DNA from: a virus
Taxonomy: Duplodnaviria > Caudoviricetes
Virus record (IMG/VR): IMGVR_UViG_3300005253_002116
Location: 1 to 57,309 of that record
Direction: 5' to 3' (one strand)
DNA: 57,309 nucleotides
Every line of letters starts with the position of its first letter. The first letter of the stretch is position 1. Below the pieces are notes generated by a model. It searched no databases and was not told where the DNA came from. It worked only from the letters and a program-made list of their open reading frames with translations. The position numbers were made by a program, and so were the translations under genes. Below are positions 1-57,309 of the stretch, one piece after another.

Positions 1-8
1 CATTTTGT

Positions 9-596
9 ATGAATACTTTAGGTCTTTCCTACGAAGCCTGTTATGGTAGTGATGAAGAAAAAAATCAACCTACTCAATATCAATGGGAAGATGCTTCGGC
101 TTATCTTAGATGGAAATTGGGTAGTCGTGAAATAGAATATACAGGTGGGTCTGTATTAAAATGTGAATATCAAGATGAAGCGAACCTAACTGCCGCTTAT
201 TTTAATCCAAGTCATCAGCCGTTAGGACATAAATCAGGCTCAATGAGTGGTAGAGATATTATGCAAATATTCGGTACTGATTTAATACGTTATACTTTTG
301 GTAATGTTTGGGCAGCAGCAACAATTCGCCTAATTAAAAGAACTGGTAAACCCTTAAATCTAATTACTGACAATAGATTTCCAAATGAGATTGAAACTGT
401 CCTTAAGGAAGACTATAGTTATATAGTGAGACTAACTCGTAGTCCACATGGACATAAAGATATGCATCCTAGCGAAGCTTCATTAGATGATTATGACTGG
501 AATCATGAGCGATGTTTTATTTTAGATAATGCTAAAATGACTATTGATGAACAAAACGAGGCACTAGTGCCAATTCTAAAAAAGATTTTTCTTTAA
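9..596 (+). CDS. deoxynucleoside monophosphate kinase-like protein (probably 5'-truncated by window edge)
   Basis: Motifs GRDIMQIFGTDLIR, LITDNRFPNE, IVRLTR, HPSE and ILDN match phage dNMP kinases (T4 gp1/T5 type); P-loop not in window. Confidence 0.7.
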   Translation: MNTLGLSYEACYGSDEEKNQPTQYQWEDASAYLRWKLGSREIEYTGGSVLKCEYQDEANLTAAYFNPSHQPLGHKSGSMSGRDIMQIFGTDLIRYTFGNVWAAATIRLIKRTGKPLNLITDNRFPNEIETVLKEDYSYIVRLTRSPHGHKDMHPSEASLDDYDWNHERCFILDNAKMTIDEQNEALVPILKKIFL

Positions 597-614
597 ATCC
601 TGGAGAAATTAATA

Positions 615-3600
615 ATGAATTTTATTGAAAAGCTGCAATCTGCAAGCAAAGAAGCAGTCAAGATAGAGAAGTGGACAGGGACGTTCCGTGAATTCTTGGA
701 GCTTTATGAATCAGGGAAATATCCTCATCTAGGTGTATTAACTCATCAACGAGTTTATAATATGGTTTTGGCGGCAGGCAAAGAACCTCAAAAGTTCTTT
801 GGCAACGACCGTATTAGGTTCAACTTTTTTGAAGATTCGCTTTTTGGTATAGAACGTAGCGTTGATGAAATTATGACCTACATTGCTTCTGCTGCTCAGA
901 AGACAGAAACATCACGTCGTATGCTTTTACTTTTCGGGCCTGTTAGCACGGGCAAGAGTCAAATTGTAGCTTTACTTAAAAGAGGTTTGGAAGAATACTC
1001 TAAGACAGATGAGGGAGCAGTCTTTGCTCTCGCCGGTAGTAAAATGCATGAAAATCCTTTTTTATTAGTACCTAATCGTCTGCGAGATGAATTTACTGAA
1101 AAATATGGTTTACAAATTGAAGGAAGAATAAGTCCCCACACTGCGTGGCGACTAGAAGAAAAATTCAAAGGGGATTTTATGCAGTTTCCTGTGGAAAGAA
1201 TTTTTCTTTCCGAGAGTAAACGTGTAGGCATAGGTACGTGGCTCCCGAGCGATACGAAGACAGTTAGTACAGATTCCACAAGGATCTTTTGCGAAGATGG
1301 CATTGTTCGTCTTTCAGATTTATACTCGCAGAACGTAAAAGAGAATAACAAAGAAGATTTCACTTCTCTGAAAGAATTTAAAGCAGCAGCTTTTGAAGAA
1401 GATGAAGGCATTAAGGGTTTATTCGATCATGGCTTTTTGCCTATGTACAGAGTTAATGCGGGTGGTGTTTGGTTTGACTGTACACTTAACCATAGAATTA
1501 TGACTCTTAATGAGGATGGAGAATTTGTATGGAAAGAATTATCCGCTATTGATGATAAAACTCCTATTATCATTAAAACAGGTATGCGAAAATTCGGGAA
1601 AAATATTGAAACTTCCAATCTGGAATTAAAAGATAGAGAAATATCTATATCATCTCAGCGACATCATTGTTGGGGTACCTTATTGCAGAGGGAGCTTGTA
1701 CTCAATTTAATATAGAATTTACCATTACAGATAATATGATACAAAAAGATTATGTAGAGAATGTACGACAAGCTTTTGGTGGAGACGTGGTCGTTTCTGA
1801 GCGACTCCAATCTATGGATGGAAGGAAGGATGTTTATAGGTGCCATCTTCCTGCCTGCGTTAGTAGATGGTTAGTTTATAACTTTAATATTGATGATACA
1901 TCGTGTAATAAAAGAGTTCCAAGTAAAATATTGACTTCTCCTGAAGAATGTCATATAACTTTTCTTCAATCTGCATTTTTGGGTGATGGATGTATCAGAT
2001 ATAGGCTAGACACAACTCCAAGTTTTATCTATGGAACTTGCTCCGAAGAGTTAGCAATGGATATTCAAGCGATGTTATTAAATTTAGGGATATTAACCTA
2101 CATCGTTCCCCAGATTAACAAGAGATTTCCTAAAAATACTCAATACAGAGTAACATGTGAAGGCAACGACGTTTATCAAATCGCTGAAATGTTTCCTAAG
2201 TTTGCTCAACATCGTGGGTTTACCTGTCCAAACAACCTGCCTATACATAAGAATCAGTTAGAGTATTTTGGTTCACTTTCAGGTTTTATTCGTGAAATCA
2301 GACGATATACTAAACATACGAGAAATTTGATAGATCGACGATATTGCATTGATACTGAAAACAGTAGGACCCCCAGACGCAAGACTTTACTCAAGTGGCA
2401 TAAAGCACTATCTGAAGATATTGAATGGACTAATTCGCGGAAGAAAGATGAAATCTTAGCTAAATTAAGTAAAATATTGTATTATCGTCCAGTCAGATTG
2501 TCATCTAAAAAACCTATCGGCATTAAACATGGCATAGATTTATCATGTAACTCAGATATGTTCTCCTATGTAGCCAATGGTGTTATTAGTCATAATAGCC
2601 AGGATATTAGCGAACTAATTGGTGGCATTGATTATGCCAAAATTCAAGAGTATGGAGACGAAACACATCCTGACGCTTATAACTTTGATGGAGAATTATT
2701 TGTTGCTAATCGTGGTATTATGGAATTTATAGAGGGCCTTCGCAGCGACGAAAAATTTCTACGAGCTTGTTTAACAGCTACACAAGAGAAGTCAGTTAAA
2801 GCTCCTAGGTTCGGTTTAATTTATGTAGACGATTTAATTTTAATGCACTGCAATGAGACCGAATTCAATGAATTCATGCAAGAAAAGAAATACGAAGCTT
2901 ACCACGATCGTATGTATATTGTTAGAGTACCTTATAACTTAAGCGTGGATAATGAAGTGGCAATTTACGAGAAGCTACTTAAAGGAACTGATGCAGTAAT
3001 CAATATGCACATTGCACCAAAATCACTTGAGGCAGCATCTATTTTCTCTATCTTGACTAGATTAGAAGAACCCGCAGGCAAAGATTTGACATTGATCAAA
3101 AAAATGCAACTTTATAACGGGCAACATGTTAAAGGGTTTAAGTTAGAGCAAGTAAGCGATTTGAAAAAGAAATCTCCTCGTGAAGGTATGTATGGAGTTT
3201 CACCTAGGTTTATCATCGATCAAATCTCTGCTGCTATTTCTAAGGCTAAGTCAGAGGAGAGAGATTTTATTACTCCTTTAGATATATTACGAACTCTTAA
3301 TTCTGGAGTACAAAATAGAGACTCGTATACTTCTGAACAAAAAACTGAATGGCTGAAACATATTGATACAGCCCGAGCCGAATGGAATGATTTACTCAGG
3401 AATGATATTCAGAAAGCCTTTTTCTTGTCATTTGAGGCCGAAGCAACTAATTTGTGTGAAAACTATTTAGATATGATTGAAGCGTCTTGTGCTGGGGAAA
3501 AACCCAGAGACCCGATAACAGGCGATGAGGTTGAGCTTGATGAAAAGTTAATGAGTGCAGTGGAAGATCAGATCGAGATTTCTGATAGCGGGAAAGAAGA

Positions 3601-3880
3601 TTTTCGTAATGAAATTCTTCGAGCGGTTGGACAAGCTGCACGCAAAAAGATAAAATTTGATTACACTAAACACGCTCAGTTGATGGAAGGCATTCAAAAG
3701 GCAATGTTTGAGGAGCGTAAAGGTGCTATTAGAATGACTGTTTCAACTCGTAACCCAGATCCCGAAGCAGTCAAAAGACTTAATGCAGTCATCGATCGGA
3801 TGGTTGAACAGCAAGGATATAGTGCTGCCGCTGCTAACGAGTTGCTGAAATATGCTTCCAGTCATTTGTTTGATAAATAG
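615..3880 (+). CDS. prkA: PrkA/YeaG-family AAA+ serine protein kinase, intein-containing, frameshifted near 1637-1667
   Basis: Walker A GPVSTGKS, MHENPF, SQDISELIGGID, FDGELFVANRGIMEFIE, VPYNL, EGMYGVSPRF; spans ORFs 615..1715 and 1667..3880. Confidence 0.9.
1260..2596 (+). mobile_element. intein with LAGLIDADG endonuclease domain inside prkA
   Basis: Splits conserved PSDTK|SQDI; N-terminus TVSTDSTRIF, block B CTLNH, LAGLIDADG motifs LLGYLIAEG and FLQSAFLGDG, C-terminus YVANGVISHN followed by Ser. Confidence 0.9.
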
Positions 3881-3888
3881 GGAATATC

Positions 3889-5061
3889 ATGTCTAATACT
3901 ATTATTGATCAAGATTATCCATATGATATTCTTCATAGAGGATCTAAGGATGCATCCCGTCATAATAAGCGGGTACAAGAGGCTGTTCGTAAACAGTTAA
4001 AAGATATTATTGGACAACAAGATATTATTACCGGGGATGGTAATAAAAAAGTCAAAGTTCGTCTTAAACATTTAAATCAATATCGCTTTGTTCATAGTCG
4101 AGATTATGTAGATGTAGTTGGCCGTGATGAGTTTGATGAATTAGAAGAAGGAGAAGTCTTACAAAGACCTGGTAGTGGTGGTGGAGATCCTCTTACGGCA
4201 GGTGATGCAATTGGTGATGCAGTCTATGAAGCAGAATATACCATTGAAGAATTGACTGATATTATGATGTCAGAACTCCAACTTCCAGATTTAGATGAAC
4301 GTAAGAAAAATGAAATAGTATCAGAGATTGTTGAATGGACTGATATACGTAAAGAGTCTGGTATACAATCTCTTATTGATAAAAAACGTACCCTGCTGGC
4401 TAACATTAAACGTAAATCTAAAATAAAGAAACTTGATCGAAAAAAACCTTTACCTATTATTAATGATGATTTGCGTTTTCGTACTTATAACATTATACAA
4501 GAAAAACACTCCAATGCTGTAGTTTTATTATGTATGGATCGTTCATCGAGCATGTGGCGAGATAAAATCTATGCTGTCAAGGCACTTTATTTCTGGATAG
4601 TACAATTCTTAAAGAGACGATATAATAAAGTCGAAATTCGATTCATTGCTCATGATTACGATGCTAGAGAACTCACTGAAAAAGAATTCTTTACAATTAG
4701 TGATAGTGGGGGAACAAGAGTTTCTGCTGCTTATGAAATGTGTGAAGGTCTGATTAAGCAAGAATACCCTGCCTCTAAATGGAATATATACGCTTTTCAT
4801 TCTTCTGATGGTGATACTTGGAGCGATGAAGAGTTATGTATGGAGATTGTAGATAGAATTACTAATAAACTAGGGGCTAATCTCTTTGCATATACTGAGA
4901 TTAATATAGATAGTTATAGACAGGGAAGTAGTTTGTTGCTGGATTGTTTTGAAGATAAAATGAGAAATAACAGTAAAATATTAGTCTCCGTTATTAACGA
5001 AATATCTGATGTAATGGATGCAATACGAACATTCTTAAGGCATTCAGTAAAGGAAGCATAG
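3889..5061 (+). CDS. yeaH: YeaH/YhbH (DUF444) vWA-domain protein
   Basis: DASRH, IDKKRT, DDLRF, MDRSSSM, FIAH, SGGT, YAFHSSDGD motifs; follows prkA. Confidence 0.9.
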   Translation: MSNTIIDQDYPYDILHRGSKDASRHNKRVQEAVRKQLKDIIGQQDIITGDGNKKVKVRLKHLNQYRFVHSRDYVDVVGRDEFDELEEGEVLQRPGSGGGDPLTAGDAIGDAVYEAEYTIEELTDIMMSELQLPDLDERKKNEIVSEIVEWTDIRKESGIQSLIDKKRTLLANIKRKSKIKKLDRKKPLPIINDDLRFRTYNIIQEKHSNAVVLLCMDRSSSMWRDKIYAVKALYFWIVQFLKRRYNKVEIRFIAHDYDARELTEKEFFTISDSGGTRVSAAYEMCEGLIKQEYPASKWNIYAFHSSDGDTWSDEELCMEIVDRITNKLGANLFAYTEINIDSYRQGSSLLLDCFEDKMRNNSKILVSVINEISDVMDAIRTFLRHSVKEA

Positions 5062-5261
5062 TGATATCCGATAATATGCAAACTCGGTTTAATGAAATTG
5101 AAAGGCTTGCAAGAGCTGCTGGCTTGCGACCTTATGATACTCATTTTTTTCAAGTTCCTTCTAGTGTAATTACAGAAGTTGCTAGTTATGGATTGCCCAC
5201 TCGCTACTCGCACTGGTCTTTCGGAAGAGTGTTCGATGACCAAAAACGTGCCGAAGAAATG
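5061..5261 (+). pseudogene. spoVR: SpoVR/YcgB N-terminal fragment, truncated at the junction with the phage genome
   Basis: YGLPTRYSHWSFG is the SpoVR N-terminal signature; the expected IYELVIN motif and the rest of the protein are absent. Confidence 0.85.
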
Positions 5262-5397
5262 CAAGAGGCTTGTGCCTCCGCAGATGTTGATCTGGACGAA
5301 TTCCTTTCCTGGTTTGACAAGTGATCTCCAGCCCGCAGGCAGCTTAATCTCTGCTTGCCGCCGGAAACCACTATCACATCCTTCGGAGTACACGACA

Positions 5398-5604
5398 ATG
5401 AGCGACAAACAAACAACCGAAACTGCCCCATCACTAGAAACACTGATCCAAGAAGCTCTTCTCCTTGCCATAAAGGCTTCTGATTCATCAACCGATGCCA
5501 AGAGAGTCGCAGAGGAAGCCTCTGCTTTTGCCTACAACGCCTACTGCGCAATCTCGAAGGTCAGCGGAAGAATCAGCGGCGGTGTCCTAAAGAATAAAAA
5601 CTGA
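5398..5604 (+). CDS. small early protein (68 aa)
   Basis: GGAG RBS in repeat module; ORF MSDKQTTE... Confidence 0.7.
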   Translation: MSDKQTTETAPSLETLIQEALLLAIKASDSSTDAKRVAEEASAFAYNAYCAISKVSGRISGGVLKNKN

Positions 5605-5681
5605 TCTCCGTCACCGGGCCTTGCCTTGTAGGGCCCGGATGCGGTTACCACTACCACACCCTTTTAGAGGAAGGAGTAACC

Positions 5682-5843
5682 CTGAAAAACACCCCGAAAA
5701 AAGAAACGACGATCGAACACGAGAATGCAACCAAAAAGGCTAAGCAAGCAAAGGCCGACTTAATCAACGTCCGCACGGACATTGTAGACACCCCAGCTTG
5801 CACGGCTTGGAAAGCGTGGATGAAAAAGAATAACCTGTCGTAA
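5682..5843 (+). CDS. small early protein, CTG start (53 aa)
   Basis: AGGAG upstream of CTG at the usual module spacing; open to TAA at 5841-5843. Confidence 0.45.
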   Translation: MKNTPKKETTIEHENATKKAKQAKADLINVRTDIVDTPACTAWKAWMKKNNLS

Positions 5844-5873
5844 CGTCAACCACCACCACCGGAGAACTAGACT

Positions 5874-5990
5874 ATGAAAAAACCAGTAACTCTTCACGAT
5901 CTTATTAAAATGATAGAGGATGAAACCATTGACGATTATCCTTTTGGAAGCTTTTGGCGATGGATATTTAATTTTCTGGTAGCTGAGTAA
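5874..5990 (+). CDS. small early protein (38 aa) between 35-bp direct repeats
   Basis: GGAG RBS; MKKPVTLHDLIK...FLVAE. Confidence 0.6.
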   Translation: MKKPVTLHDLIKMIEDETIDDYPFGSFWRWIFNFLVAE

Positions 5991-6036
5991 TTCTCACCTG
6001 TCGTAACGTCAACCACCACCACCGGAGAACGTAACT

Positions 6037-6348
6037 ATGCATCCCGAATTAAACTACTCCGCGAGTTGTTCAAAAAAAGCCCTCGAAATTAAGGCAGCTG
6101 AAGCCTGCCGGCAGCGAGCACTTAAAAAAGAACAGCAAGAGCATAATAAACAACTGTCTGAAATTACTATCGTCATTGAAACTACAAACTCTGCTTTTTT
6201 TACTTTCGATGGAAAACCTAATGCCACATCCGAAATATGCCGCATTTTGCATGATTTAACAATGGCAATTAGCAGAGGAACAGTTTTGAATAAAGTGCAA
6301 TTGCGTGACTACAACGGAAACCCAGTTGGACACGTTACATTTCGCTGA
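6037..6348 (+). CDS. hypothetical early protein
   Basis: GGAG RBS; C-terminal pattern NSAF..EICRIL..LRDYNGNPVG recurrent in phage early proteins. Confidence 0.7.
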   Translation: MHPELNYSASCSKKALEIKAAEACRQRALKKEQQEHNKQLSEITIVIETTNSAFFTFDGKPNATSEICRILHDLTMAISRGTVLNKVQLRDYNGNPVGHVTFR

Positions 6349-6387
6349 TCTACCACCACTTCACCGCTACCACAGGAGAGTAAGACC

Positions 6388-6573
6388 ATGACCGATGCTG
6401 AGCTAAACTGCTACGCTCAACAGATCGTAGACGCCGTACAAGACCCAGACATCTACATTAAGGCTAATGTGGCCATCGCCAGAGAACGAGCCGCACGGAA
6501 CCGCGACAGGCTGCTAGGTGGCATTGGGCGACCAGACACAGCCTACCTCCGATCGGTAGGTTGGCCCCGCTGA
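6388..6573 (+). CDS. small early protein
   Basis: AGGAG RBS in a degenerate module. Confidence 0.65.
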   Translation: MTDAELNCYAQQIVDAVQDPDIYIKANVAIARERAARNRDRLLGGIGRPDTAYLRSVGWPR

Positions 6574-6653
6574 TTGATTCCCGTTACCGGGCTATCCGAT
6601 GGAGGGGTAGCCTGGACCCGGTAACCACTCGCTTCACCCTGGAGAACGCGATA

Positions 6654-6845
6654 ATGAGAACATTTTATGTTAAAACAAATGAAAACGGGGATCATTACAT
6701 ATTTAATAAAAAGAAAACAAAGTTTCTAGCGGGACCATTTGAGTCTCTAAATCAAGTTGACTCTTGGATTAGATGGAACACCGTTGATACTAATAAGTAC
6801 AAAGTGATCCGTATTAAGTACATCCTAAATAAGAGAACGCAATAA
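6654..6845 (+). CDS. small early protein
   Basis: GGAG RBS after hairpin module; MRTFYVK... Confidence 0.65.
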   Translation: MRTFYVKTNENGDHYIFNKKKTKFLAGPFESLNQVDSWIRWNTVDTNKYKVIRIKYILNKRTQ

Positions 6846-7009
6846 TGATGAGACGCAGAGAACTTGTAATTGCCCTAGAAAAAGAGGGAATACAGTGTTG
6901 TTTCAAAGATCCTCTTTGGAGATTACGTCTCTTGTTTAGGACGCTGCCAATCAAAACACAAGAAAAATATATCACCATTCAACAACCTCCAGAGGAGCAA
7001 AAAAAATGA
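6845..7009 (+). CDS. small hypothetical protein
   Basis: TAATG coupling with the upstream gene. Confidence 0.5.
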   Translation: MMRRRELVIALEKEGIQCCFKDPLWRLRLLFRTLPIKTQEKYITIQQPPEEQKK

Positions 7010-7173
7010 ACGAAAACGAACTGGCAAAAAGAATTGTAGATGAATTGACTTTCGATGAGATTCTCAAATTTGCTGTTCAGAAACTAGCTGAGCAATTTAG
7101 AGCAAATCGAGCACATTTTGAATTTGCACATCTTGACACAATTGGAGATTTTCCTCCGCCGCCGACCGACTGA
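7006..7173 (+). CDS. small hypothetical protein (55 aa)
   Basis: GAGGAG RBS, ATGA overlap. Confidence 0.55.
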   Translation: MNENELAKRIVDELTFDEILKFAVQKLAEQFRANRAHFEFAHLDTIGDFPPPPTD

Positions 7174-7254
7174 AACCTTATACCCCCCAATCTGGTTCTT
7201 AGAGGCCCTTTTCTGACTATTAAACACAATAAACCATGCGACAAGACCCTAAAC

Positions 7255-7615
<361 letters not shown>

Positions 7616-7681
7616 TCAAGTGCTAGAACGGGGGGACTACTGGATTATCAATAGTGGTACTCCCTTTACCGAGGAGATTCA

Positions 7682-7936
7682 ATGAAAGAAGAACCTGAAA
7701 TGGCCACCTGCCCCGATTGTGGGGAGAGACAGCCCGTAACATACATCTGGCTTGTTTGGACACATTGCCGGGAGTGTGGGTGCCCTTTAGACCATGGTGC
7801 TGATGAAAGTGTACTTGCTCGCGTCGATTGGATAGCTATTGATCCCGAACAAGTCGTAGCACGGGAAGCACTTTCTCAAACAATTACATTTTCTAACATA
7901 GGAGTGTTAATAAAGGAAAACCAAAAAAGCAATTGA
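7682..7936 (+). CDS. small zinc-ribbon protein
   Basis: CPDC...CREC; GAGGAG RBS. Confidence 0.6.
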   Translation: MKEEPEMATCPDCGERQPVTYIWLVWTHCRECGCPLDHGADESVLARVDWIAIDPEQVVAREALSQTITFSNIGVLIKENQKSN

Positions 7937-7961
7937 CTTGCCGATTCAGCGTGATATAATT
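7934..7961 (+). promoter_or_regulatory. sigma70-type promoter
   Basis: TTGACT-16 nt-TATAAT with extended -10 TG. Confidence 0.65.
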
Positions 7962-8003
7962 GAGTATGGTTCACAGAAACACGATCCACAGGAGAAAGAA
8001 ACT

Positions 8004-8471
8004 ATGAAGAAAACCACACTGGAGATTTGGCCGGCAAAAGATTGTCCTGTCAGTATTCAAGTGAGGAGTAACGTAGGGGGTGCCGTATACGTCAATGGAG
8101 TTTTGTGTGATGCCGAAACAGACGTTCCCATTGAAGAGGAAAAGCCGCAAACGAAAACCCTTCGCCGTTACGAGATCATTCTCCCGCTCTTTTTCAATGA
8201 TAACACTGAAATTTCTGGAACACTAATGGATTTGACACTGGATGAGCTAGAAAGGGAATTCGGGGGAGTTTCCCACGAACTAAACAGAATCATTGGTTTT
8301 TGGAAGGATGAAGTGGGATTTCGTTATCAGGAACAAAATACGAGAATCTTTTGTGATGTGCCAAATGAACCTGACTCGAAGGACTTCTTTAGAGAATACA
8401 AAGAAACCCTCAAGACTCGCTTCAAGCAGCAAGACATTTGGATGGTGTCTTATCTGATAGACATGGTGTAG
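8004..8471 (+). CDS. conserved hypothetical protein (C-terminal RRYEIILPLFFND...FKQQDIW domain)
   Basis: AGGAG RBS before ATG 8004; C-terminal domain resembles a widespread small bacterial family. Confidence 0.6.
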   Translation: MKKTTLEIWPAKDCPVSIQVRSNVGGAVYVNGVLCDAETDVPIEEEKPQTKTLRRYEIILPLFFNDNTEISGTLMDLTLDELEREFGGVSHELNRIIGFWKDEVGFRYQEQNTRIFCDVPNEPDSKDFFREYKETLKTRFKQQDIWMVSYLIDMV

Positions 8472-8478
8472 TGGTGAC

Positions 8479-9284
8479 CCCTGTTGACGTGCCGTCTTAT
8501 GAGAGGAAAGGGAAATCCCGCTGATTGGATTCAGAGGCGGCACGGCGGCGGGGATTTTAAGAGTGTATCTGTTTGCGTGTTGTTTCTAAGGAATGGAAAC
8601 ACTTAATAAGGGGAAACAACACGCTAACGGTTACACTTTCACGTTTCTTTTCTGGAGGTTGTTTCTATGTCTGATGTTAATGAGATTAAACCCGTCACTC
8701 GTATCGAAGCCGTGAATTCGGCAATTGCCGCAATCCAATATGGTGGCAACAATTGCATTCGCGCTGTCGATTTGTGTGAACAAGCAGAGAACGCCGTTGT
8801 GGATTCCGGAGGAAAGCCTAATCCTGACGCAACGGTGAAACTCTTAAAGAAGACCCTAAAGGTTGCCGTGGGATTAGGAGTGCTGAAGCTTGATACTACA
8901 GTCATCGTGGAGCGTATTACGTAGCAGTTAGTGTCTCTGCCGGCGTGCCGTTCCTGTTCTTACTGCCAATCGGAAAGCTAGCATATCCTTATGGCTTACG
9001 CGGACGGCACGCTAACGGACACACTTATAGAAGCAAGAGACGTAAGGCCGCTTTTTGACTAAGAGTGCCCCCGTCGATATACCGTCTGCAACTTAATTAG
9101 TCATTAAGGGACGGTATATTAACGGGAACATTTTAAGTGTCTCCGCCGGCGTGCCGTCATTAAAGGTTTCCCACTGAAAAAAACTGGGGCCTTTACAGAT
9201 CTGCGACTGGAACCTTTTGAATACCTGAAACTTCCGCAGAAAGAATCGGTGGCGATTGGTTTTTGACGGCACGCTAACGGACAC
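8479..9284 (+). ncRNA. cluster of five related long stem-loops (8479-8553, 8562-8637, 8931-9022, 9065-9131, 9137-9284); putative structured ncRNA(s)
   Basis: Shared stem GCGTGCCGT/ACGGCACGC with compensatory variants; TAACGG on the 3' arm of four copies; G-U pairs mostly favour the + strand. Confidence 0.65.
8667..8924 (+). CDS. hypothetical protein embedded in the stem-loop cluster
   Basis: Strong GGAGG RBS; 85 aa ORF. Confidence 0.7.
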   Translation: MSDVNEIKPVTRIEAVNSAIAAIQYGGNNCIRAVDLCEQAENAVVDSGGKPNPDATVKLLKKTLKVAVGLGVLKLDTTVIVERIT

Positions 9285-9308
9285 ATTCACTACTTAGGAG
9301 AAAAGTCA

Positions 9309-9635
9309 ATGACAATCTACTATGAAGCCTGGTCGGGCCCTCCGGGATTACCTTTTCCTGAAATGCCACACATCCGCACAAAGCGGGTTTCAACTCCTAT
9401 TGGACAACTTTTCAAGGCCAGACGCGAGGAGTTGGGCCTCAGCAAGGAGGATCTCGCCTCACAAGCCAATACGGGGTTCTTGAACGTTGTAGCGTGGGAA
9501 ACTGGGCCATTGGCCTTGAACTCTCTACAAGACATTCTGAGGATTCTGGGGGCATATTTGATTGTGACGCCAGATGGGGGGAATGAGTTGATAACTGATA
9601 CAATAATGCAAGGGGTTATCAATGCTGGAATTTGA
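9309..9635 (+). CDS. XRE-family helix-turn-helix protein
   Basis: GQLFKARREELGLSKEDLA...VVAWETG pattern; AGGAG RBS. Confidence 0.75.
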   Translation: MTIYYEAWSGPPGLPFPEMPHIRTKRVSTPIGQLFKARREELGLSKEDLASQANTGFLNVVAWETGPLALNSLQDILRILGAYLIVTPDGGNELITDTIMQGVINAGI

Positions 9636-10944
9636 AGAACTTACCCCAAAAATAGCCGGCTCATCTGCTCTTGCACTTCAAATATCCAAGGAAATTATTC
9701 GGCAGCCTGCAATGAAGTCACTTCGTTACGAATTTTCAGAACATAGTAATCTCTGGGTATTTTGTGGCCATCTCGCAAGAGAAGTGATTGATCCTTTGTT
9801 GGTCAAAGAACGCAATTGTCAACCTCTTAAATAGGAATAAAATGGAACTAGCTCATAGAATTATTGTAGAAACACATTTAGATGCCGGTTTTGCTCTTGG
9901 TTCTTTCATTCTAAAAGAACCACTTACAATCAAGGAAATCTATGATAAATATAAGGCATTAGGTTGGGATTGCATGGTAACTCTCTCAAAGGGAATCGCC
10001 AGAGTAAACTACGTCAAGAGGGATATATGTCAGATGCAATAAAAATTGAGGGATATATTCCGACTGCGATAACGGTCGATAATAGAACTTTTTGGCTTTT
10101 TCCGGAGCCGTGGCCGAAAATAGGATTTGCAATTTGGTGGCAAGACCCGCCCTCTGGGGGAAACCCCGTGATGCTGGGTATTGCTGACTCGCCGGCTCAC
10201 CGGGATTTTCTCATTGCAAACTACTTTAGATTTTCTTTTTGTTTGTTGATAGATCAAGAAGGAGTGCATCTTTCTACAATTGGAGACAGGCAACCTTGGC
10301 ATATCAGACCCCTCGTTAATGGGCAGCGATTCTTCCATCCTAACACTATCAACACAGAATCAATTTGTAAACAAGTAAGAGAGAAAAATGGAATCGACAT
10401 AATTGCACCTGTCAATCTCGACCATAACAACATTTGCGAGGATTGCATTCAAGCTTATGCTTCTCAATAAGCTTGCATTTTGCTAGATGAAATTGTGTAA
10501 ATAGATTCCTAAGAAGGGAAATATAAATGATTCTCAAATGCGATTGTTCTACCGGGGGGAGATTTAACAATAAGAATGGAGCAGAGTTTCAGAACGAGGA
10601 GTACGGATACGGAATGCGTGTTCATACTCCAATGAAACAAGCAGCTAGTAAGGGAATGGCAAGATGCACAATTTGTGAAAACGAAAGGCTTCGAAGTGGT
10701 CAGACCAGCACATAATAGCCGAGAGGCAGCACGACGAAAAGCTCAAAAGCGTCTTGAAGGATTGAATTATACTCCGCAGACTGCGAAATTATTGTCAGAG
10801 TTATTGATAATCCTTTCTGAGGAAAATCACAGCGTAAGAAGTTACGTCCTTGGAGCTTTCTCAGAAATTGTATGCCAAAAACCAACTTGGGAAGTGATAG
10901 ATTGCGGATATAGAATCATGAAACAAAAGGTGGTAGAAAGATGA
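9622..10944 (+). CDS. run of small hypothetical genes (9622-9834, 9842-10042, 10027-10470, 10527-10715, 10675-10944)
   Basis: Closely spaced or overlapping ORFs, several with RBS; no recognisable domains. Confidence 0.55.
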
Positions 10945-12980: not shown

Positions 12981-13329
12981 TTCTTTCCTCTTGGGCTTTT
13001 TTGATTTCGTGTAGGTAACCAAAGGCATTGAAAATTACAGCACAAAGAGCCTCTTCCTGGGATAATTCATCCATTTCATCAAAAAAAGGTATTGACTTCC
13101 TATGCAGAGTCCAAACCTCAATGAGATGACGCCAAAGAGACTTTACATAGGCGTCGAGCGGAATGCCTTTCTGCCAATTGTCGCTGTCACGAATTTTTCC
13201 ATTGGATTGCACACGGTGCTTGTGCATGTATTCAGCGTAACGCTGAAATGCTAGCGGGCTTAGGTAGCCTTCATAGTCCAATTTTGAATCTTCGTCGTCT
13301 CGTGTCGCACCGGAGTCAAAAGTTCTCAT
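12970..13329 (-). CDS. dATP/dGTP diphosphohydrolase-domain (DUF5664-like) protein
   Basis: FDSGATRD..KLDYEG, DNWQKGIP, SLWRH, AVIFNA. Confidence 0.75.
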   Translation of the reverse strand: MRTFDSGATRDDEDSKLDYEGYLSPLAFQRYAEYMHKHRVQSNGKIRDSDNWQKGIPLDAYVKSLWRHLIEVWTLHRKSIPFFDEMDELSQEEALCAVIFNAFGYLHEIKKAQEERNEN

Positions 13330-13948
13330 TTTTTTCCCTTTCTGATAGGTTAAAATCTTTAATGCCGCTGTCTAGTAAACGAAAAGCACGTTGTGCTTGC
13401 TTTCTTTTCTGTGTTGACAAATATGGCCATAATAACTGTAATACAATTTCGACATTCTTTCTTTTACAGATTGTATATTGATGTTGATTTTTTTCTTTTC
13501 CTTTCGCTGTTTTTCGGTATATTTTTCCTACCCCAACAGCATTCAGAAATCTTTGTAATGTTTCAGCCGGTTGACCATTTGGGTCATTTTTTTGTCCAAT
13601 TGATAATTGCACTCGCGTAAAAGGATTTCCGTTATTTGTAGTACAGGAAATAGAACCTTCTCCGTCATAAAATCCAGCAGACCATGCTAGTTCTATACCT
13701 AAGTCAAGCTTACCGTCCTCGGAGTCTCGTGTTGCACCAGAGGTAAATTCTCTCATTTGTTTTTTTATTTCTTCTTTTCTTTTCTCGTGCTTCTTAAGTT
13801 CTTTGTTTGATTCTAATATATAATTAGGTATAAATTCATTTTCTCTTTCTTTTTCTTTTTGGTAAAGGGGGAAAATCCTATCGCACCATTCTCGAATTTC
13901 TTCTCCGAAAAATTTGGGATATTTGTCAAAGATACTTACAGAAGACAT
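13316..13948 (-). CDS. LAGLIDADG homing endonuclease fused behind a duplicated DUF5664 N-terminus (internal start possible at 13756)
   Basis: MREFTSGATRDSEDGKLD followed by ELAWSAGFYDGEGSI, GVGKIY and LWPYLSTQKRKQA. Confidence 0.8.
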   Translation of the reverse strand: MSSVSIFDKYPKFFGEEIREWCDRIFPLYQKEKERENEFIPNYILESNKELKKHEKRKEEIKKQMREFTSGATRDSEDGKLDLGIELAWSAGFYDGEGSISCTTNNGNPFTRVQLSIGQKNDPNGQPAETLQRFLNAVGVGKIYRKTAKGKEKNQHQYTICKRKNVEIVLQLLWPYLSTQKRKQAQRAFRLLDSGIKDFNLSEREKNENF

Positions 13949-14953: not shown

Positions 14954-15051
14954 GATATTGCTTTGCAAGAGGGCTCGGAAATATAGTGCGTAGTTGGTCG
15001 ACACTATGGAACTTGTTATAGTTCTTCCGAGCCCTCTTGCAAAGCAATATC
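14954..15051. repeat. perfect 27-bp inverted repeat with a 44-nt structured spacer
   Basis: GATATTGCTTTGCAAGAGGGCTCGGAA (14954-14980) is the reverse complement of 15025-15051. Confidence 0.9.
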
Positions 15052-15546
15052 TAAGCTGCATAAAATACATGGTGAAACTACTATTAAACCGCCGCACATT
15101 AAGCACCTGCTGGAGGGCTTCTCCACTTTATACTTTTCGGTACTTCTGCCGAATGTTCCATAGCAAACTGCATTCCTTCCTTCGTCACGAGGAGTTTTAT
15201 GGGAGTGCTTGGACGCAAAACGCTTAATGTTGACGGGAGATTTCCTTTCTCTGAGCTCCGGAAGCTTCTTTATTTTCCTAATTGTGTCTCTCTTAGTATG
15301 AAGAATTCTTGAAATATGGGAAATAGTAAAACCTTTTTCGAGTAACTCTCTGATCTTCTTCTCTTTACCTATTGAAATCATTTCTCCGCAATCGGGTCTG
15401 CAACGTGTCCGATCCATCATTCCCGAAGTTGCTTTGACTCTATAAACTGTTCTTCGGCATACGCCCGCTCTAATACATATTTCTCTTGGGGTTACCCCTT
15501 CACGTAAAAGCTTCTTAATGAATTTTTCCACTTCAACTGAAATCAT
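15016..15546 (-). CDS. double-HTH DNA-binding protein with C-terminal Cys cluster
   Basis: Two HTH-like segments (GVTPREIC..GVCRRTVYR; GFTISHISR..RDTIRKI); CLMCG..PCILC. Confidence 0.65.
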   Translation of the reverse strand: MISVEVEKFIKKLLREGVTPREICIRAGVCRRTVYRVKATSGMMDRTRCRPDCGEMISIGKEKKIRELLEKGFTISHISRILHTKRDTIRKIKKLPELRERKSPVNIKRFASKHSHKTPRDEGRNAVCYGTFGRSTEKYKVEKPSSRCLMCGGLIVVSPCILCSLDIALQEGSEEL

Positions 15547-55524: not shown

Positions 55525-55552
55525 TTGACTTCCACCGCAGGTGTGCTATCGT
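55525..55552 (+). promoter_or_regulatory. promoter at the head of the early-gene array
   Basis: TTGACT-16 nt-TATCGT with extended TG. Confidence 0.5.
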
Positions 55553-55602
55553 TGTCGTAGAGGGCAGACCACTACCACTACATCCTTTCGGAGGCACTCG
55601 TC

Positions 55603-57309
55603 ATGAAGTTTAGACAGGTAGTCACATTTACGCTGGATACCGAAATTGACCCGAAAACCTATCAGGGGCAATCTGCGGAAGAGATTCTCCAAATCTACAA
55701 AAGGAACATAGGAAATGTCCACAGTTTGGTTGTGCAACACCCGCATAGCAGAATTAAGACAACCATCGAAGTAATCTCCAAGTGATCCCCACCCACCGGC
55801 TCCAGCCTCCCTTGGAGCCGCGAGGCGGTTACCACCACTACACTCTTGGAGGATGCGACAATGAACGTTGAAAGAGCTATCTCTGACCTGAAACACAACC
55901 TAACGTACCTGAAAAGCATCAGGGATTGCATCCAATGGGTTCCTGATACAGGGCACGTAGGAATTCACGAATGGATAGAAAGCCTGCCACAACCGCAGAT
56001 CATCTTCGAGCCTGTCAACGCAGACAATGAGTGATCACTGGCTCACGGGCAGCCTGACCTCTGCCCGTCGCCGGTTACCACACCACTACACCACTAGAGA
56101 CGAGACAATGACCAACCTTGACATTCTACTGGGCCACTCCCCTTCCTTAGAGCAATTGCAAGACAGTTCCGACGCCTTAGAAAATAGGATTATTGTCCTA
56201 GAAGAGGAACGAATTCTAATAAGGGTTCGATTGATTGACGCCCGCCGGGAGCGGTTGGATATTCAACGGGCTATAGTGGCTCACCCATGTTACCAGCGGT
56301 AACCGTCACCGGGCCGTCCAAGGGAGGTCGGCCCGTCGACGGTTACCACTACCACACCACTGGAGATGCGACCATGACCTTAAACGAAGCACAGAAAGCG
56401 TACGAGCAAGCTATCCAAGAGGTCGAGACAACCCAAGCTAAACTCCACTCCGCCCGAACGAACCTTCTTCAGACCTCGCCGCAAAACGTGCACAGGGTCT
56501 CCAGTTTCCGATCCATTGCGATTCTGTATGGATTGAATTACGAGCAAGCTGTTCTAAAGGTCGAGACAGCCAAAGCTAACCTCCACTCCGCCCGAACGAA
56601 CCTTCTCGCAATCGAAAAGGCAGATTATGAGGCAACTAAGGCGGAATGTACCCGCCGAAAGGCCGCTAAGTGATCTCCACCCACCGGCTCCAACCTCCCT
56701 TGGAGCCGCGAGGCGGTTACCACTATCACACCCTTTGGAGTACACGACAATGACCACAGCAGACGCAGTAGACAGGGCCGTCATTCGACACGAGAAGGCT
56801 TGCCAAGTCTTTGAAAATGCCCAAGAGAAGGAACATGCGACGTACGAAGAATTGAAAAACGCAATTGAGTACGAGACGAAAGAAAGACTCGACATCTACA
56901 GACCGCACGGTTGTCTGTGATCTCTGGCCAACGGGCCACGTCCCAGCGTGGCCCGCTGCCGGAAACCACTACTACACTCTTGGAGGCGATGCGATGACCG
57001 ACGAACAATTGAGAATAATTGCGAACCCTGACAGCGAGAGATTGACAGATGAAGAACTAAAGAGCATGGCGTGGATACTTAATGAGCTAGCAAAGGATAA
57101 GGCCCCTGAGTGATCTCCACCCACCGGCTCCAGCCTCCCTTGGAGCCGCGAGGCGGAAACCACTATCACACCCTTTGGAGTACACGACAATGAGTACACA
57201 ATACATCGGCGGATCTGCCCTATCAAAGGGGGAAAAGACCAAAGAAACTCTACCCAAAGCGATAAAGGCCTCCGGGAAAACAACCAAGGCCATGTGGGTC
57301 GTTGAGAAA
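55603..57309 (+). CDS. early microgenes: 55603-55785, 55861-56034, 56108-56302, 56374-56673, 56750-56920, 56994-57113, 57190->57309
   Basis: Each starts after the GGAG/GAG RBS of a repeat module and ends at the stop codon that opens the next module. Confidence 0.75.
55783..57192 (+). repeat. early-gene intergenic modules, right part of array (55783, 56032, 56300, 56671, 56918, 57111)
   Basis: Copies at 56671 and 57111 nearly identical and 55783 close; the others keep the hairpin and ACCAC tract with changed stem sequence. Confidence 0.9.

Follow-up and report, generated by a model that had tools for sequence, protein, structure and literature searches.

Repeated hairpins between small early genes are known from several phages, and with these is compared a hairpin family found in a genome of Caudoviricetes (IMG/VR record IMGVR_UViG_3300005253_002116; 57,309 bases, the full record, below called the window; CheckV 100% complete). 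In phage T7 the ribonuclease III (RNase III) signals, named R0.3, R0.5, R1, R1.1 and R1.3, are helices with internal loops placed between early cistrons. Five such signals are carried by the early precursor of roughly 7000 nt; where there are mismatches or internal loops RNase III cuts one strand only, and a stabilising hairpin remains at the 3' end (PMC3867540). The same traits are seen in the window: related hairpins between presumably early cistrons, helices with internal loops, co-oriented open reading frames (ORFs) and stems of 17–25 pairs. Unlike the T7 signals, to which there is no sequence relation, the present hairpins take up the stop codon in the stem, are followed by a CA-rich leader, occur in part as gene-less tandems and have loops of up to 106 nt; the likeness is read from the sequence alone, and cleavage is predicted.

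The promoter-early stem-loop (PeSL) cassettes of T4-like phages are said to have been treated by Comeau et al. in 2014. In an earlier description (Arbiol et al. 2010, PMC2839356), repeated units of stop codon, stem-loop, Shine-Dalgarno (SD) site and start codon stand before small ORFan genes, and close strains gain or lose genes by recombination between units; both traits were found here, the second in one strain locus (L133) and for one unit. For the strong sigma-70 promoter that defines the PeSL, consensus scans gave no match on any of the 14 units of the window.

In Cluster K mycobacteriophages, a 13-bp start-associated repeat (SAS, GGGATAGGAGCCC) has just upstream of it an imperfect inverted repeat of 17 bp whose spacer varies (extended start-associated sequences, ESAS); the ESAS occur in non-structural genes only, and the authors were unclear about their function (Pope et al. 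2011, PMC3203893). Common to both cases are a short repeat that holds an SD site before starts, inverted repeats upstream of it, and a position in the non-structural half in one orientation. The ESAS have a conserved half-site and spacers of mostly 4–13 bp, whereas in the window the inner stems covary, the arms measure 20–25 nt and the spacers 3–106 nt. The leader of the window, (C)CACTAYCACAYCC...GGAG, is a different sequence from the SAS and has no relation to it. The SAS lies 3–8 bp before the start codon.

With the hairpins of the window a new sequence family is added to the familiar phage intercistronic cassettes, as a variant that lacks the promoter. The hairpins probably act in cis, as stem-loop cassettes between the cistrons of early polycistronic mRNAs, and not as the payload-display RNA system that the first-pass annotation had proposed for five of them.

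The hairpin family in the window

The five hairpins at 8479–9285 (hp1–hp5) had been taken for a separate new system. A genome-wide inverted-repeat scan gave more hairpins that open with AGTG and close with CACT, and nine short-loop relatives overlooked at first pass (m1–m9, loops of 3–8 nt) were located, all in the + strand gene block; the family in the window counts fourteen copies and one possible member, h0 (Table 1). The claim of a new family was borne out, that of a separate system was not: hp1–hp5 are probably the long-looped, partly tandem members of a wider lineage-specific family.

Table 1. Positions of the hairpin copies, a leader-only junction and the promoter-like sites (R1 and R2, covariance models of the short-loop and the long-loop copies)
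Feature	Position	Strand	Preceding stop	Following element	Other data
m1	55781..55838	+	TGA 55783-55785	ATG 55861	R1, 84.9 bits
m2	56030..56086	+	TGA 56032-56034	ATG 56108	
m3	56293..56352	+	TAA 56300-56302, inside hairpin	ATG 56374	R2, E 9e-4
m4	56669..56724	+	TGA 56671-56673	ATG 56750	
m5	56916..56973	+	TGA 56918-56920	ATG 56994	
m6	57109..57164	+	TGA 57111-57113	ATG 57190	
m7	5320..5375	+	TGA 5322-5324	ATG 5398	
m8	5600..5653	+	TGA 5602-5604	leader, GAAGGAG; next ORF without nearby ATG, GTG or TTG	
m9	6570..6631	+	TGA 6571-6573	ATG 6654	extra unit of L133 inserted just past this leader
hp1	8479..8553	+	TAG 8469-8471 of 155-aa gene, 8 nt before hairpin		39-nt loop; R2, 61.3 bits
hp2	8562..8637	+		leader ACACTTTCAC...GGAGG, ATG 8667 of 85-aa ORF	26-nt loop
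hp3	8930..9025	+	TAG 8922-8924 of 85-aa ORF, 5 nt before hairpin		52-nt loop
hp4	9062..9133	+			23-nt loop; AT-rich inner stem with 4 compensatory pairs
hp5	9136..9285	+		leader TTCACTACTTAGGAG, ATG 9309 of HTH gene	106-nt loop
h0, possible member	7356..7460	+			outer stem AAGTGTCC...GGACACTT as in family; 57-nt loop
Leader-only junction	5835..5877	+		CCACCACCACCGGAG, SD site, ATG	without hairpin
Sigma-70-like promoter match	7933..7960	+		hp cluster downstream	TTGACT, 16 nt, TG, TATAAT; 11/12
Sigma-70-like promoter match	55525..55552	+		m1 downstream	TTGACT, 16 nt, TG layout

Placement and orientation are fixed, and the stems are kept up by compensatory change. All nine short-loop copies carry the stop codon at the foot of the 5' arm or inside it, eight of them as TGA within (G)TGATC. 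A three-tier stem-loop follows; its 3' flank, CGG(TT/AA/TA)ACCACT, passes into a CA-rich leader (e.g. ATCACACCCTTTGGAG) and an SD site, and 20–25 nt separate the hairpin from the ATG in the eight copies with a clear ATG (29 nt for hp2, 23 nt for hp5). At least 12 different inner-stem sequences were found, each self-complementary. The 5' arm often holds TCTCC, complementary to the SD site; the two are paired in some folds of the full unit, inconsistently between copies. Since each of the nine short-loop relatives fills the space from a stop codon to the following ribosome-binding site, the conserved thing would be an intercistronic signal and not a display scaffold.

R1 was built from the nine m copies with a hand-set structure and model-based realignment; this route replaced a MAFFT/RNAalifold consensus of the short-loop copies (only 11 pairs, in misregister), and a simple hairpin finder was set aside (88 matches, mostly spurious). 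The m copies were scored by R1 at 63–88 bits on the + strand, any - strand match at 47 bits at most, and nothing convincing was obtained over the 43-kb block read on the - strand; with R1 and R2 taken together, + strand scores were 48–88 bits against 24–47 bits for the same sites on the - strand. In an alignment of the nine copies and two new strain-contig copies (11 distinct + rows), 8 of 21 pairs are changed on both sides, a covariation score reached in 0/500 shuffles. The leader also occurs without a hairpin, at 5990–6039 and 6345–6390 besides the junction of Table 1; weak R1 matches were obtained at 6340–6390 (E 0.83) and 5952–6039 (E 2.3). The possible member h0 sits in a 500-nt non-coding, GGGACAC-rich region and is detected by neither R1 nor R2.

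The five hp hairpins were found within about 3 nt of their first-pass positions, and the shared base stem, the compensatory core variants and the variable loops were likewise recovered. One 25-pair register, set on a MAFFT alignment of the five copies, fits all of them: 86.8% of the cells are paired (slid registers, 30–45%), and 12 of the 25 pairs are changed on both sides, a score reached by 0/500 shuffles. The + strand folds of hp1–hp5 gave -38.6, -34.4, -40.0, -32.2 and -54.8 kcal/mol, with z-scores of -4.2, -7.4, -3.8, -6.3 and -4.2 (0 to 1 of 200 dinucleotide shuffles as good); the base stems of hp2–hp5 are nearly continuous helices of 24–25 positions. TAACGG, noticed earlier in four copies, belongs to a longer motif, TAACGGNHACA, which occurs four times in the window, only in the hp cluster (0.2 expected). 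No match to Rfam 15 was found in the whole window at gathering thresholds; at E up to 10, region 7800–9900 gave chance hairpin look-alikes, the best being a plant miRNA hairpin (34 bits; threshold 180), and ARAGORN found no tRNA and no tmRNA. Covarying stems with a conserved base and variable tops, together with the missing Rfam match, make this a new structured family.

The cluster reads: 155-aa gene, hp1, hp2, leader, 85-aa gene (with an SD site), hp3, dead leader, hp4, hp5, leader, helix-turn-helix (HTH) gene; the dead leader after hp3 is decayed (AGAGACG, without start codon). The HTH gene (9309–9635), annotated at first as XRE, did match HTH_3 and HTH_31, both weakly and below the Pfam cut-offs (E 0.0055 and 0.008). 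hp1 and hp4 are paralogues, as are hp2 and hp5, and ATTTTAAG joins hp1 to hp2 and likewise hp4 to hp5; hp3 and hp5 have nearly identical arms and unrelated loops. hp1 was also considered as a short-loop-type copy in the opposite orientation; this was rejected, since hp1 is a same-orientation paralogue of hp4.

Both types begin with AGTG(T/A)TC(T/C)C and share the 3' flank (CGGTTACACTTTCAC in hp2 resembles the m-type flank of m4, CGGTTACCACTATCAC) as well as the placement, past stop codons (hp1, hp3) and before an SD site and ATG (hp2, hp5). R2, built from the five hp copies, picks up m3, the m copy that is most hp-like. The hp copies would accordingly be placed as a divergent subfamily, by a link that is clear by eye and marginal by model.

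Strains and wider relatives

Two strain loci, L133 and L134, were obtained by a protein-guided scan of metagenome contigs, and the stem is kept in both. L134 is 97.8% identical over 8117–9139; its changes in the modelled stems keep or improve pairing (hp1, U.G to U-A; hp2, U.U to A-U; hp3, U.G to C-G and A-U to G.U), and a few additional changes lie at the very foot of hp3. In the loops of hp1–hp4 no change was counted over 140 nt, against 16 in 613 nt (2.6%) of the two flanking ORFs; about 3.7 loop changes would be expected (P about 0.03, from one pairwise comparison).

L133 is about 99% identical over 5241–9659 and differs by exactly one unit: right after the m9 leader it holds an extra 111-aa ORF, a new family hairpin and the leader once more; the crossover lies in the 31-nt leader repeat, CACTCGCTTCACCCTGGAGAACGCGATAATGA, that flanks the unit. 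The window itself looks like the product of a crossover within this repeat. In L133 the sequence upstream of window position 5241 holds an ORF that differs from that of the window, followed by one more hairpin, whose inner stem is new; the loose ends of run contigs display the L133 variant. The extra gene (L133:1718-2053) codes for a cysteine-rich 111-aa protein with CxxC-type motifs and has no counterpart in the window. As a separate observation, contigs of three runs end at differing points inside hp3–hp5 (window 9000–9308), and one run contig joins 9023 to 9308 (side of 30 letters, 80% likeness); a population variant without hp4–hp5 is possible, on evidence too weak to count.

For wider relatives, a primase alignment of 20 sequences (the window and 19 picked among 120 matches listed) led to 79 IMG/VR loci and 4 genome loci. 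One of them, from a phage at 48% primase identity, holds a single hairpin (L160:17870-17976, - strand; R1 E 7e-4) with the plan of the family: stop codon in the 5' arm, then leader, SD site and ATG; it is the one copy in the sequence covered. Other searches gave no relatives: blastn of 7900–9700 against the phage collection (no match); IMG/VR locus searches with the 155-aa, HTH and DUF444 proteins singly; and two degenerate DNA patterns in IMG/VR, which gave one match per contig (at least 117 stretches and 12 stretches) and were taken as chance. Among 10-mers present at least four times per locus in the relatives, only tandem coding repeats were found; when four of the 79 loci (L179, L139, L184, L198) were scanned for folds on one strand, each gave one strong hairpin. 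Long tandem arrays with units of 15, 21 or 24 nt lie near the primase in several related phage contigs (L151:379-800, L149:1-330, L201:1900-2300, L173:80-440, L209:2600-3100); these appear to be repeat-protein genes, unrelated to the hairpins.

Candidate functions

In the unit as proposed, a small gene's stop is followed by a three-tier stem-loop of 17–25 pairs, a CA-rich leader, and the SD site with the next start. The case for a role in RNA is made by the placement and the single orientation relative to genes. Host RNA polymerase, starting at the two promoter-like sites (the one noticed earlier near 7934 was found to match the consensus), would make long early mRNAs in which the hairpins probably form; their action would be in cis, on the processing, stability or insulation of these messages. 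In the most likely version, which is possible rather than probable, host RNase III would cleave within the base stem, as it does at the five early signals of T7; the upstream message would then end in a protective 3' hairpin, and the downstream message would start with a free leader. RNase III was not found in a six-frame search of the phage and is encoded in all three planctomycete assemblies that hold primase relatives (3/3). Since the units repeat, they may double as recombination seams that add or remove ORFan genes, as PeSLs do in T4-like phages; one event, that of L133, displays this recombination role. The tandem, ORF-less hp1, hp3 and hp4 would be units left over or duplicated by recombination.

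Several points weigh against this interpretation. The copies m1, m3, m4, m5, m6, m7 and h0 fold 5–14 kcal/mol better as the - strand, and the 11 distinct + rows of the m-type alignment hold 22 A.C against 13 G.U cells (most of these A.C cells fall in few inherited columns). The + strand is favoured by hp1 (13 kcal/mol; -38.6 vs -25.3) and hp2 (6), slightly by m8 and m9, hp3–hp5 fold about equally on both strands, and the five hp copies have 15 G.U and 9 A.C cells. An assignment of the strand from wobble pairs was rejected, because the counts conflict. The first-pass argument that extra G-U pairs in hp1 point to a + strand RNA holds for hp1 itself and does not generalise, since seven other copies fold better as the - strand and the summed wobbles are balanced. 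The link between the two types is loose: on the cluster R1 gave E 0.25 for hp2 and 0.88 for hp1 and missed hp3–hp5, which is why the hp copies are called a divergent subfamily. Among the loci searched, R1 recovered the family in L133; save for the weak match in L160, it was absent from the loci of 78 distant primase relatives (30–57% identity) and from the 4 genome loci. The loci reach no further than about 10 kb to each side of the primase, and absence from the phages is not implied. Conservation of the family appears, in these data, in close strains only. Folded as + strand RNA, the short-loop copies give helices of 15–21 pairs with interruptions, weaker than a classic RNase III substrate, and a processing signal needs neither loops of 39–106 nt nor gene-less tandem copies; the unchanged loops of L134 hint at some constraint on them. 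That the block is a single transcript is deduced from the two promoter-like sites only, and transcription, processing and acting strand are predictions from the genome text.

An alternative close to this is that the hairpins are attenuators or terminators between early genes, which meter read-through independently of a U-tract or with the help of a factor, like the stem-loop half of a PeSL. The position directly past stop codons would suit this, the tandems hp1-hp2 and hp3-hp4-hp5 could sum their effects, and consensus scans gave two promoter-like sites only for about 30 small genes. The same scans found neither a promoter match nor a T-run terminator match on any of the 14 units; 0/14 copies are terminator-like, and the conserved 3' flank is CA-rich, so that identity with intrinsic terminators was rejected. 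Efficient terminators would moreover silence the promoter-less genes downstream. Attenuation is therefore judged unlikely.

A role in translation, by which hairpin and leader set up or insulate the initiation of the next gene, as proposed for SAS/ESAS, draws on the stop codon in the 5' arm of all nine short-loop copies, the 20–29 nt to the next start, the conserved GGAG leader and the frequent TCTCC of the 5' arm; in one variant, a ribosome terminating in the 5' arm would melt the stem and free the site downstream. Against it stand hp1, hp3 and hp4, which no gene follows, three junctions with a leader and no hairpin, and the inconsistent pairing of the SD site among copies; the ESAS authors are themselves unsure of the role of their sites (PMC3203893). 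The role was given little credence.

The proposal made at first pass was that of a common scaffold with different RNA payloads, or of a kissing-loop assembly. In its processing form, the 24–25-pair base stem would be a scaffold from which double-strand cleavage frees the 39–106-nt tops as decoys, sponges or guides; the nearly continuous base stems of hp2–hp5, the near-identical arms and unrelated loops of hp3 and hp5, and the hp1–hp4 loops unchanged in L134 beside ORFs that differ by 2.6% would fit it, the last from one pairwise comparison. The loops themselves do not: isolated, they are no more structured than shuffles (z -0.79 to +0.65), and the complementarity between loops is at chance level, the longest Watson-Crick run of 7 nt being equalled in 179/300 shuffles and the longest run with wobble, 9 nt, in 222/300. 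Elsewhere in the phage the hp loops have mismatch-free matches of 12 nt at most, Rfam gave no match, and the nine intercistronic relatives with loops of 3–8 nt offer nothing to display. The kissing-loop assembly is not supported, and the payload scaffold is regarded as improbable. A bolder form, to be kept at a similarly low estimate, sees the cluster base stem as an RNase III-type module, pri-miRNA-like, that releases the unrelated tops as small RNAs; if true, the hairpin family would have been co-opted as a general launcher of new phage small RNAs, and the conservation of the loops would be its first trace.

Folded recombination sites of the attC type are imperfect hairpins with conserved ends and a centre of variable length, located directly after co-oriented cassette ORFs, with the core consensus RYYYAAC ... 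GTTRRRY. Hairpins of the repetitive extragenic palindrome (REP) and IS200-IS605 types are targets of Y1 (HUH) transposases or REP-associated tyrosine transposases (RAYTs) and are dispersed in either orientation. A role in DNA (palindromes like REPs or miniature inverted-repeat transposable elements, MITEs; attC-like sites; cruciform or template-strand signals) might be seen in the seven copies that fold better as the - (template) strand, in the cassette-like gain and loss between strains and in the conserved ends with variable centres, as in attC, and is regarded as highly improbable: the L133 crossover is in the leader repeat, not in a hairpin, and so fits ordinary homologous recombination; the flanks are AGTGATC ... 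GG(TT/AA)ACCACT, with GGTTACC or GGAAACC in place of GTTRRRY; all copies are oriented alike to the genes, and four prefer the + strand; and six-frame searches of the phage gave no tyrosine recombinase (PF00589; 14/14 control genomes matched) and no Y1 transposase (PF01797). With no PF01797 match in the phage and one orientation, identity with REP or IS200-IS605 hairpins was rejected. A search for a T7-like RNA polymerase (PF00940) carries no weight, as its control had no match.

Genome surroundings and significance

Small + strand ORFs occupy 55,600–57,309 and 1 to about 12,000. The portion of 12–55 kb, read on the - strand (43-kb block), codes for a primase-polymerase, a helicase, a Cas4-like exonuclease, the large terminase and many proteins without family. 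The stretch is contained in four DNA runs from two marine-sediment studies and in no RNA run among the sequencing runs listed. Primase relatives with 47–52% identity occur in assemblies labelled Planctomycetaceae and Thermoguttaceae, one within a 1.79-Mb contig, and a planctomycete host is therefore no more than a reasonable guess. The ORF after m6 (57190–57309) overruns the record end; when the ends are joined it closes at the stop TGA 10–12, which overlaps the ATG 9–11 of the next gene (ATGA). The genome may thus be closed or circularly permuted, despite its listing as linear in IMG/VR.

Upstream of the promoter-like site at 7933, the 500-nt non-coding region 7174–7681 holds 6 of the genome's 10 GGGACAC boxes (7278–7611, both strands; 10 matches were reached in 0/100 shuffles of the whole window) and a (GA)n microsatellite at about 7470–7500, where run contigs break off; the region resembles a cluster of operators for some regulator. 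The low-GC block at the start of the window (0.365–0.372 over the first 4 kb) codes for a dNMP kinase-like protein (below the Pfam cut-off), a PrkA AAA protein, a 737-aa protein and DUF444. A SpoVR-like N-terminus (our reading; no tool match) may be present in this block, joined to about 29 C-terminal residues from a small ORF. In L133 (1–388, compared with window 1–5324) the matching C-terminus belongs to a 49-aa ORF with a family hairpin before it; since L133 keeps the same C-terminus in this separate ORF, the PrkA/DUF444 block looks like a moron whose recent insertion cut a small gene short. At 14954–15051 lies the strongest inverted repeat of the genome (27 nt, perfect, 44-nt spacer), which straddles the 3' end of an HTH_23/HTH_7 ORF (15016–15546, - strand) and is weakly matched by both hairpin models (E 0.5–1.1 and 0.002). 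A LAGLIDADG homing-endonuclease-like ORF (13316–13948, - strand; Pfam E 2.7e-07) stands among the replication genes.

Repeated stem-loop cassettes between early genes are poorly documented, and are now extended to an uncultured marine-sediment phage lineage. The present example is a clear one, with about fifteen copies, at least 12 self-complementary inner stems and a strain pair one cassette apart. It also advises that the whole genome be checked before a local cluster of "novel structured RNAs" is called a separate system; the gene-less, long-looped tandem copies are the sole part that could conceal novelty. For the processing or insulation of early messages, and for the swapping of ORFan genes, a concrete set of sequences is thereby provided for study.

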